Of a DNA stretch of 64,000 nucleotides, positions 60,558 to 64,000 are shown piece after piece; within the stretch, counting starts at the first letter, position 1, and every line of letters begins with the position of its first letter. The stretch is taken from IMG/VR virus record IMGVR_UViG_3300042691_015921. One strand, 5' to 3'. The translations under genes were made by a program, and so were the position numbers. Under the pieces are notes generated by a model. It had not been told where the DNA came from. It worked only from the letters and a program-made list of their open reading frames with translations, and ran no database searches. The DNA is from a virus.

Positions 60558-60826
60558 TTCGGGAACTAGGATTTGAACCTAGACAGAATGATCCACATAC
60601 TACTATAGTTTTCACTACCCTTTATGGTTTGTAGTCTAGACTTTACCTTCACCATGGATTAACTTTAGGTGTCTCCCGTCAAGTCGTTACACCTTCTAAT
60701 TTCTTAGCTTGGCTCGGGATTGGCATTTTACAGCGTTCCCCGAATTTGAGAGATTATACTATTAAAGTTTCCCTTAATGCACTCCAGTTCTTAAAGTCAT
60801 TCGTGCTACCGTTACACCACTCCCGA
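60558..60826 (-). tRNA. tRNA-Gln(UUG) interrupted by a group I intron (exons 60794-60826 and 60558-60595)
   Basis: Joined exons give a U1-A72 acceptor TCGGGAG/TTCCCGA, anticodon arm AATGA-CTTTGGA-TCATT and T arm CTAGG-TTCAAAT-CCTAG. Confidence 0.85.
60596..60793 (-). mobile_element. Group I intron (198 nt, no ORF) in the tRNA-Gln anticodon
   Basis: P (AAATTCGGGGAA), Q (AATCCCGAG), R (GTAACGACT) and S (AAGGTAAAGTC) elements; P1 ACTTTA/TGGAGT with U.G at the splice site; terminal G. Confidence 0.85.
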
Positions 60827-60827
60827 A

Positions 60828-60902
60828 TACGAGAGGGGGGAGTCGAACCCCCAACATTCAGATCCTAAATCTGACGCCTCTGCCAAATTGGGCTACCCTC
60901 GC
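60828..60902 (-). tRNA. tRNA-Leu(UAG) with short variable loop
   Basis: GCGAGGG/CTCTCGT with A73; TCAGA-TTTAGGA-TCTGA; variable loop ATGTT. Confidence 0.85.
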
Positions 60903-60913
60903 ATGATATATAG

Positions 60914-62485: not shown

Positions 62486-62557
62486 CTGTGGGAGGTGGTT
62501 CTGCCCCACCATCTTACACTTTAACAGAGTGCCGCATTACTGTTATGCTATCCCACA
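62486..62557 (-). tRNA. tRNA-Asn(GUU) with atypical D and T loops
   Basis: TGTGGGA/TCCCACA with G73; GCACT-CTGTTAA-AGTGT; T loop GGCAGAA. Confidence 0.8.
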
Positions 62558-62568
62558 AAGATATAAAA

Positions 62569-62641
62569 AGCAAGAGAAGGGAATCGAACCCTCAACTTTC
62601 AGTTTGGAAAACTGACACTCTGCCAATTGAGTTACTCTTGC
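62569..62641 (-). tRNA. tRNA-Gly(UCC)
   Basis: GCAAGAG/CTCTTGC with U73; TCAGT-TTTCCAA-ACTGA. Confidence 0.95.
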
Positions 62642-62680
62642 AAATCCTATGAAAAGATTTCTCTAATCATAGGAAAAATA

Positions 62681-62893
62681 TCAACGAACCACAGAACGAA
62701 CGCGAGAACCAACCCTACGCAGTCCATTGCGGGTTACTTCTACCGTCTTCTTTGTGACCTGAACTGGAACACGAACTACTTCCTTAGTAGCGGTAACTAC
62801 ACGGTTGCGAAGTCCACAAGTTCCATTAGCACAATCTCCAGCATTTACAGAGCCACAAGCAAGTGCAAATGCTACAACAAGAATATATCTCAT
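62681..62893 (-). CDS. Small secreted basic protein
   Basis: SD AGGAGG; signal peptide; CANGTC; Arg/Val-rich tail. Confidence 0.7.
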   Translation of the reverse strand: MRYILVVAFALACGSVNAGDCANGTCGLRNRVVTATKEVVRVPVQVTKKTVEVTRNGLRRVGSRVRSVVR

Positions 62894-62927
62894 AGAATCC
62901 TCCTTTAAAAAGTAAAGTTAAAACAAA

Positions 62928-63088
62928 TGCCCGTTTGGATATCAAGGGCGGGCAACCCCCCGTCACTGTCAAGCAGCGAGTGCGTAGGTTTCTACGTCAT
63001 TTAAAATTTGTCTATTTTTAAACTGGCCTTTAGACAAACCAGTACATGCAATTATCTTTTCCATAATCAGTCGATACTTTTCACCCCC
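62928..63088 (-). ncRNA. ssrA: Two-piece tmRNA, coding piece (5' acceptor strand, pk1, tag ORF (A)DVETYALAA at 62969-62998)
   Basis: GGGGGTGAAAAGTATCGAC 5' end; pseudoknot ACTGG/CCAGT plus TTTGTCTA/TAGACAAA; TAAAT|GAC resume context; YALAA-stop. Confidence 0.9.
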
Positions 63089-63626
63089 GATAAATTACTA
63101 TAGCCTTTGCAAATTTTATAACATCTTCATCTGAAAATTTATTTCTGGCAAAATTAAACATAACAGATACAAATCTAACATTTCCAATTATATATCCTTT
63201 ATTATTATCAATTCTGTCTAAACTAGCAGAGTTAATATTTAATGGATTTAATTTGTTATCTTGATCCTTATATGTTCTTAAATCTAAAGCAAAACCGGTA
63301 AATGGACAAGTACCATTCTGTGATTCCCAAACATCTTTTAAATGTTCTAAAGTCAAAGAATATTCTTTCTTTTTTCTTCTTTTTGCGTCTCTCAGAAACG
63401 GTTTAAATACACTATATTCATCTTGTTTTTTTGGATTATTCAAATTCCAAACGGGATAGTCCGTTCTATTACTTAATATTCTTTCAGTAGTTTCTGGACT
63501 TTTGCCATAACAAGACAAACAGCAGTAGAATTTGTCCTTTCCCGCTTTTACTTTTCTATTATACTCGCCTTTTTCTTTTTCAAATTCTTTGTTACAAGTA
63601 GCACAAACTAATTTTATTTTTGACAT
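63081..63626 (-). CDS. HNH-like putative homing endonuclease with N-terminal zinc finger, inside the tmRNA intervening segment
   Basis: CATC...CCLSC; CPFTG; SLDRIDNNKGY..GNV....N; SD AGGAG. Confidence 0.75.
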   Translation of the reverse strand: MSKIKLVCATCNKEFEKEKGEYNRKVKAGKDKFYCCLSCYGKSPETTERILSNRTDYPVWNLNNPKKQDEYSVFKPFLRDAKRRKKKEYSLTLEHLKDVWESQNGTCPFTGFALDLRTYKDQDNKLNPLNINSASLDRIDNNKGYIIGNVRFVSVMFNFARNKFSDEDVIKFAKAIVIYRG

Positions 63627-63690
63627 TTTATCTCCTATTTAGGTTATATATTTTATTATACACCAAAAATGATGGAGATGATCAAAAAAA

Positions 63691-63755
63691 GTGGAGGTGG
63701 AGGCATTGCAGCCTCGTCCTGTGTTATTTCCGAAATAATCTCTACATGTTTAGGC
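63691..63755 (-). ncRNA. ssrA: Two-piece tmRNA, acceptor piece
   Basis: CTAAACATGTAG...CAGGAC-GAGGC-TGCAAT-GCCTC-CACCTCCA; pairs with the coding piece to give G3.U70 and A73. Confidence 0.85.
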
Positions 63756-63991
63756 TAAGTTTGAGTCAATAGCCATGACTGTACCTTTTCATTTACTGAT
63801 TTCCGTAATAGATCAATAATTCCAGAAAATTTAAGACTTGTACGATCTGGATTATATTTATCATGATATACTATAGCGAGAAGAATTTGTTCAATTTCCC
63901 ATTCAAGGTCACTCATATTATACTCCCACCAGGGTCTTATCAGTAATTTCTTCCGTCTCATTATTATAGTGGACAAAGAACGAATAACCAA
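63755..63991 (-). CDS. Hypothetical protein; likely start at 63916
   Basis: SD GGGAG before MSDLEW. Confidence 0.4.
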   Translation of the reverse strand: MVIRSLSTIIMRRKKLLIRPWWEYNMSDLEWEIEQILLAIVYHDKYNPDRTSLKFSGIIDLLRKSVNEKVQSWLLTQT

Positions 63992-64000
63992 TCTTTTTAA

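Follow-up and report, generated by a model that had tools for sequence, protein, structure and literature searches.

A putative homing nuclease gene that reads into the tmRNA 5' end within a two-piece phage tmRNA gene

Coding sequences and nuclease genes at tmRNA and tRNA genes

In Carsonella ruddii, the smpB ORF reads into the 5' end of the tmRNA gene ssrA, which has been called 'an interesting feedback situation' (PMC4131195). The overlap was described by Hudson, Lau & Williams in 2014 and first noted by Mao et al. in 2009, as cited in PMC4131195. Maturation of the tmRNA should render the mRNA of the overlapping ORF non-stop and a substrate for trans-translation, and the same is expected of the locus described here, which lies on the minus strand of a 64,000-nucleotide stretch of viral DNA (IMG/VR virus record IMGVR_UViG_3300042691_015921; hereafter, the window). 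Stop loss through tmRNA maturation is thus not new in logic, as it has already been published for Carsonella smpB-ssrA. However, Carsonella smpB encodes the partner protein of the tmRNA itself, in the decaying genome of an endosymbiont, whereas the overlapping gene in the window appears to be that of a mobile nuclease, housed between the two pieces of a permuted phage tmRNA. Likewise, the Carsonella overlap occurs in only half of the strains and is 'found nowhere else', whereas here it was present in 10 of the 10 lineages examined.

The fate that we propose for the nuclease mRNA also resembles that of E. coli arfA mRNA, in which an endonucleolytic cut in the ORF removes the stop codon, the product is ssrA-tagged and degraded, and output tracks tmRNA activity (PMC3989581). 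In arfA, however, RNase III cuts at the gene's own hairpin and the cut is experimentally proven, whereas the cut considered here is the one predicted for tmRNA maturation by RNase P. Further overlaps of coding sequences with tRNA or tmRNA genes have been tabulated (Table 4, PMC4131195), such as that of a Helicobacter FtsW-family CDS with tRNA-Ile (PMC4131195). As in the window, the CDS is upstream and in the same orientation, and non-stop mRNA is predicted to arise at high frequency. Those overlaps differ in being rare (about 1 in 15000 mRNAs), in being mostly single events in closely related genomes, and in not lying within the RNA's own precursor.

T4 SegB is a free-standing homing endonuclease, a GIY-YIG enzyme encoded between tRNA genes. 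It shares with the gene in the window a small size, a promoter of its own (putative in the window) and sporadic occurrence beside conserved tRNA-like genes, its probable targets, but the gene in the window probably encodes a PacI-like HNH enzyme, keeps to the tmRNA 3' end and is here housed in a permuted tmRNA. Group I introns in the tmRNA T-loop carry LAGLIDADG homing endonuclease genes, according to a tmRNA database paper from 2025 (PMC11915505). These too are selfish nuclease genes inside tmRNA genes, but they are of the LAGLIDADG type and sit within self-splicing introns, whereas the gene described here occupies the intervening segment. The intervening sequences of permuted tmRNA genes hold a tRNA-Ala or a repeat element, and the survey reports no protein gene there (PMC11915505). 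Two-piece tmRNAs are found in marine and aquatic phages, for example the OM43 phage Melnitz, and 53 of 133 unique phage tmRNAs are permuted (PMC9004378); in contrast to the locus in the window, two-piece tmRNAs of the Melnitz type have short intervening segments and no nuclease gene. Our literature search found no report of a nuclease gene in a tmRNA intervening segment, nor of a nuclease-tmRNA overlap.

The two-piece tmRNA gene and the ORF between its pieces

In the window, a phage tmRNA gene is circularly permuted and split into two pieces, with a nuclease ORF filling its intervening segment of about 600 nt. On the minus strand, to which all positions given for this locus refer, the gene order is acceptor piece, intervening segment and coding piece, as required by the permuted tmRNA family RF04321. 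The acceptor piece (63692..63751) precedes the ORF, about 600 nt upstream of the coding piece, and consists of the P2 3' strand (63751-63740) followed by GGAC, the T-arm (63715-63700) and the acceptor 3' strand CACCTCC with the discriminator A (63699-63692); CCA is not encoded. The coding piece (62907..63088) contains the 5' tRNA-like strand (63088-63070), PK1 (63043-63010), a tag frame encoding DVETYALAA and a stop (62998-62969), which aligns with the tags of relatives, and PK2 (62961-62929), and it ends in a T-run after PK2. The T-loop of the window tmRNA (within 63715-63700) has 6 nt rather than 7, as has that of the acceptor piece of L004, one of the related loci.

The ORF (63626..63081) encodes 181 aa with the C-terminus ..IVIYRG, and direct reading of its end gives TAT CGG GGG TGA at 63092-63081. 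Its last 8 nt (63088-63081) are tmRNA nt 1-8: the first base of the tmRNA, G1, is 63088 and forms the second base of the ORF's CGG codon, and the TGA (63083-63081) is tmRNA nt 6-8. There is no in-frame stop earlier than G1. Both the position of G1 and that of the stop are those given in an earlier note made from the sequence of the window. RNase P is predicted to cut between 63089 (C, position -1) and G1. The frame that starts exactly at G1 stays open through the tag stop at tmRNA nt 118-120 (63088-62969, minus strand) and is the tag frame; the nuclease ORF of the window does not use it.

Between the acceptor piece and the ORF, inside the intervening segment, lies the left part of the nuclease cassette (63627..63691), a block that includes a T-run and is kept in every cassette copy. 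It contains a conserved TATAAT-containing, promoter-like element (63664-63655), which we take to be a promoter, and a strong Shine-Dalgarno sequence, AGGAG, starts at 63636 ahead of the ORF. The conserved TATAAT element was not called by a simple promoter scan of the window, because its spacer is 19 nt. Just before this element is a degenerate second motif resembling a tmRNA 3' end (63680-63670), of the CATCTCCA type and followed by T's. A motif of the CATCTCCA type is present at the same place in every cassette copy, and it may be a tmRNA end carried over from a one-piece donor or a part of the promoter.

Four observations uphold the identity of 63088 as the tmRNA 5' end, which the same note had assigned: acceptor pairing, alignment to relatives, the invariance of nt 1-8 and covariation in PK1. 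The sequence GGGGGTG (63088-63082) pairs with CACCTCC at 63699-63692 in an acceptor stem of 7 bp that includes the alanine-identity G3:U pair, and the discriminator A is present. The window's coding piece aligns along its full length with those of three nuclease-free relatives, L127, L100 and L173, which match Rfam RF04321 (tmRNA_permuted) with 105, 96 and 91 bits, respectively, against a curated gathering cut-off of 47 bits. In the RF04321 alignment, G1 corresponds to the initial G of the consensus GGGGgUGaA. Across 10 aligned coding pieces, the window's included, nt 1-8 are invariant, and GGGGGUGA does not vary within this tmRNA clade, whose nuclease-free members have it too. In a covariation test, stem 1 of PK1 was 92% paired with both sides changed in four of its five pairs, and for the four tested helices together none of 500 shuffles attained the observed covariation score. 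Compensatory changes in the T-stem and P2 are also visible by eye in the alignments of relatives.

Standard tmRNA finders did not report this gene. ARAGORN called no tmRNA in the window, also not after in silico shortening of the insert, and no RF04321 match in the window reached 47 bits; the only Rfam hit at the locus was a partial match to beta_tmRNA (62928-63020, 22.6 bits, E 2.6e-4). The gene is missed by ARAGORN and RF04321 because the insert of about 600 nt splits it, and the 6-nt T-loop and an unusual resume region are possible reasons for the ARAGORN failure. Among the nuclease-bearing relatives, ARAGORN calls a permuted tmRNA in L004 and L005 after in silico shortening of the insert, and in L393 an RF04321 match of 48.9 bits (cut-off 47) spans the nuclease-containing intervening segment. 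Judged by sequence comparison, the tmRNA is functional with the insert in place, as nuclease-bearing loci keep intact tag frames and show covariation in PK1, PK2 and the T-arm.

Several other features lie on the minus strand nearby. A 70-aa ORF (62893-62681) directly follows the coding piece; it has an N-terminus resembling a signal peptide and a strong Shine-Dalgarno sequence, and it gave no family match. A tRNA at 62486-62557 was found by Rfam (49.3 bits) and missed by ARAGORN; its T-loop is unusual, and its anticodon loop points to GUU (Asn). Further on, an Rfam group I intron match (60615-60803, 55.4 bits, cut-off 50) adjoins a tRNA at 60827-60903.

The nuclease cassette and the place of its stop codon

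The ORF had been called an endonuclease from its letters, and both profile and structure comparisons agree. It matches PHROG 3322, annotated 'endonuclease', with E 3.8e-23, and endonuclease VII and HNH PHROGs match as well; a Pfam search of three ORFs of the window gave nothing significant. An AlphaFold model built from 37 homologues has a pLDDT of 87, and its best match among solved structures is the HNH restriction enzyme PacI (3ldy_A, E 0.011, probability 0.99, TM 0.35/0.43), followed by many HNH domains. With the sequence profile searched against the PDB, PacI appears at E 0.85 only. The gene is thus probably a free-standing, homing-type endonuclease cassette of the PacI-like HNH (beta-beta-alpha-Me) type. 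A blastn search of 62600-64000 against 50,697 phage records gave no match. An ENA contig of 1293 nt (P0001) holds a copy of the nuclease that is 99% identical, and therefore stems from the same or a very close phage sampled in another public assembly.

Relatives of this nuclease are found mostly in another setting. In 26 loci, scored with Rfam, the nuclease starts 46-104 nt past the 3' end of a one-piece tmRNA gene; the one-piece-associated loci are L006, L008, L009, L012, L014, L196-L202 and L204-L209, and further L212-L217, L219, L222 and L397-L399. In a permuted gene, the stretch that follows the tRNA-like 3' end is the intervening segment, and the same habit therefore puts the nuclease between the two tmRNA pieces. 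Intervening segments with a nuclease measure 592-618 nt, versus 17, 19 or 127 nt in those without it (L100, L127 and L173, found by an IMG/VR scan with an acceptor-piece pattern), and such presence and absence of a gene at one site is the pattern that would be expected of a homing-type selfish gene. In several copies, a displaced fragment of a tmRNA T-loop and 3' end, in some cases derived from another tmRNA, lies right at the nuclease stop or beyond it, and these fragments look like the footprint of homing into tmRNA genes. The constant place and the displaced fragments hint that the enzyme may cut, and its gene be copied into, the nuclease-free allele.

To follow the overlap through the family, we located the nuclease stop in the 10 DNA-confirmed loci or locus groups that hold a nuclease in the intervening segment. 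In all 10 the ORF continues beyond G1, and none has an earlier stop. The stop is at tmRNA nt 6-8 in the window, L001-3, L004/L182 and L194/5, at nt 10-12 in L393, nt 11-13 in L392, nt 23-25 in L005/L115, nt 28-30 in L401, and nt 34-36 in both L394 and L402. The earlier note had asked for a stop overlap conserved in homologues. This holds in that no relative of the same layout stops before G1 (10/10), but the exact position varies, with nt 6-8 in four groups and nt 10-36 in six. The nucleases concerned are 51-78% identical in pairwise comparison; acceptor stems of five kinds are present among the loci, and each of the three reading frames is used. L004, L392 and L393 are 69-77% identical, yet use three frames and three acceptor stems. 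Many further database homologues have C-terminal tails that can be read as translated tmRNA 5' ends.

The stop position alone is unremarkable, because the UGA follows from the tmRNA consensus once the ORF abuts G1 in frame. UGA at nt 6-8 is also present in nuclease-free tmRNAs and was therefore borrowed by the ORF; it did not evolve for it. What goes beyond chance is the absence of any stop before G1 in every relative of the same layout (10/10). From these alignments, it is this absence, and not the position of the stop, that presents itself as the conserved trait.

Homologues with a stop of their own are located elsewhere. Those checked all lie behind a one-piece tmRNA gene or a tmRNA 3' end, with the exception of L203 (L203:2053-2071), in which the nuclease stands in front of a one-piece tmRNA and stops at a TAA 16 nt before G1, with a TGA next to it (TAA then TGA, 13-16 nt before G1). 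Its sister L400 (L400:79-642) reads into the tmRNA 5' end and stops at nt 10-12; its upstream context is cut off. Five candidate counter-examples with tails unlike translated tmRNA (P0038, P0050, P0052, P0055 and P0056) were set aside, as none of them is in an intervening segment; all come after one-piece tmRNA genes or tmRNA 3' ends. When the exact 19-nt tmRNA 5' end was searched in IMG/VR there was no match, and a junction-blind IMG/VR scan, which combined the acceptor end with a cassette motif, returned no contigs beyond those already found.

Predicted stop loss on tmRNA maturation and what it may do

The tmRNA 5' end is made by RNase P, as stated in PMC3985003, and permuted tmRNA precursors are processed by tRNA-processing enzymes (PMC11915505). 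Ribosomes stall on non-stop mRNA and are rescued by tmRNA-SmpB, with tagging of the product and decay of the mRNA (PMC3989581). In the junction sequences that we read, covering the last 40 nt before G1, no conserved promoter-like element was seen near the ORF 3' end, and the coding piece would therefore be cut from a transcript that contains the nuclease ORF. As the ORF's only stop is at tmRNA nt 6-8, past G1, the reasoning of the earlier note that a cut at G1 strips the ORF of its stop is sound. By analogy with known tmRNA processing, we consider it likely that maturation at G1 produces stop-less nuclease mRNA.

The explanation that we favor, with a confidence that is modest for the account as a whole, is that a cassette packed flush against the tmRNA yields a stop-less nuclease mRNA upon maturation at G1, and that trans-translation comes to the rescue. 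The cassette would abut the coding piece such that its ORF, having no stop of its own, reads over G1 and ends at the tmRNA's UGA. Once the acceptor piece has paired with G1-G7, RNase P would cut the coding piece free, as in all tmRNAs. Each matured coding piece would then leave behind a nuclease mRNA that ends one base past codon 179 without a stop. Ribosomes on the cut mRNA would stall and be rescued through trans-translation by the host or the phage tmRNA; the nuclease made from it would presumably be tagged and degraded and the mRNA decayed. Untagged enzyme would be released only by ribosomes that finish before cleavage, and a ribosome at the stop would cover G1-G7 and so delay cleavage. 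The arrangement may have originated in the tight packing of a selfish cassette and have persisted because it does no harm or brings a slight benefit by damping nuclease output.

Several points speak against this explanation. Since transcription and translation are coupled, most ribosomes may have finished by the time the acceptor piece has paired and RNase P cuts, and the effect could then be small. Selection for regulation is not needed to account for the conservation, the position of the stop itself varies, and L203, which precedes a one-piece tmRNA, carries a stop of its own.

The earlier note had proposed a self-limiting feedback loop that holds a toxic nuclease low. In its full form this reading has the overlap kept by selection, with nuclease synthesis and tmRNA maturation being mutually exclusive, and we regard this as possible but doubtful. 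It would also have the nuclease from processed mRNA proteolysed, so that a potentially harmful enzyme stays low despite the strong tmRNA promoter, a suggestion that we offer tentatively. None of the 10 lineages has a stop before G1 despite several small indels that shift the frame at the junction, and some lineages, instead of gaining a stop, put up with 9-12 additional tmRNA-encoded residues. The strong Shine-Dalgarno sequence of the ORF also fits selection for such control, and ArfA is a proven case of regulation through programmed non-stop mRNA (PMC3989581). However, the stretch from a conserved 'AV' to G1 is only 6-12 nt (2-4 codons), and own-stop homologues carry at least five residues there by hand count. 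Ending the ORF ahead of G1 would thus cut into the C-terminal helix, and the junction may be frozen. A frozen flush junction, together with the need for a tail of at least five residues, explains the pattern equally well. In addition, the target for gaining a stop is tiny, at 2-4 codons, so that zero events in about eight deep lineages make for weak statistics, and homologues that follow one-piece tmRNA genes do without any arrangement of this kind. In L222, L212, L214, L197 and L006, too, the end of the ORF abuts or lies within a displaced tmRNA 3' fragment that is non-functional, which makes flush ends a habit of the cassette. Taken to its full extent, selection would mean that a lineage of phage nucleases gave up its own stop and kept a two-way switch with the host tmRNA, which on the present comparison seems rather unlikely.

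At the other end, the overlap might be a pure by-product of packing with no measurable consequence, if the nuclease is synthesized co-transcriptionally, ribosomes terminate normally at the UGA and processed leftovers are degraded. The flush ORF ends beside tmRNA-derived sequence in other contexts of the family and the presence of the borrowed UGA in nuclease-free tmRNAs are both what this would predict. Nevertheless, we find a complete lack of consequence improbable. Every functional coding piece would have to be cut at G1, so stop-less mRNAs would arise at least one-for-one with mature tmRNA, and ribosomes already on those mRNAs need rescue. That the tmRNA with its insert is a dead relic, or takes its 5' end from a private promoter at G1 so that processing costs the ORF no stop, is very hard to credit: ARAGORN and Rfam call no complete tmRNA in the window, and a TATAGT can be read there at -14..-9 relative to G1, but helices covary and tag frames are intact across the nuclease-bearing lineages, RF04321 is above its cut-off across the insert in L393, findings on which a relic was rejected, and the TATAGT, unconserved in other lineages, was rejected as a promoter.

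In the favored explanation, the locus bears on how a phage gene may be tied to trans-translation. Programmed non-stop mRNA is, from arfA, a proven way to couple the level of a protein to trans-translation capacity. After Carsonella smpB, the locus in the window and its relatives form a second class of overlap that is much more widespread, is consistently conserved and is found in phages. Made up of a single promoter, a single ORF and a single RNase P site, it would offer a simple natural system in which translation and RNA processing compete. On the practical side, such genes are missed by tmRNA finders, and the nuclease tails reported by gene callers are really tmRNA sequence. If the coupling is real, a selfish gene lives inside a useful RNA gene without over-producing its DNA-cutting enzyme.
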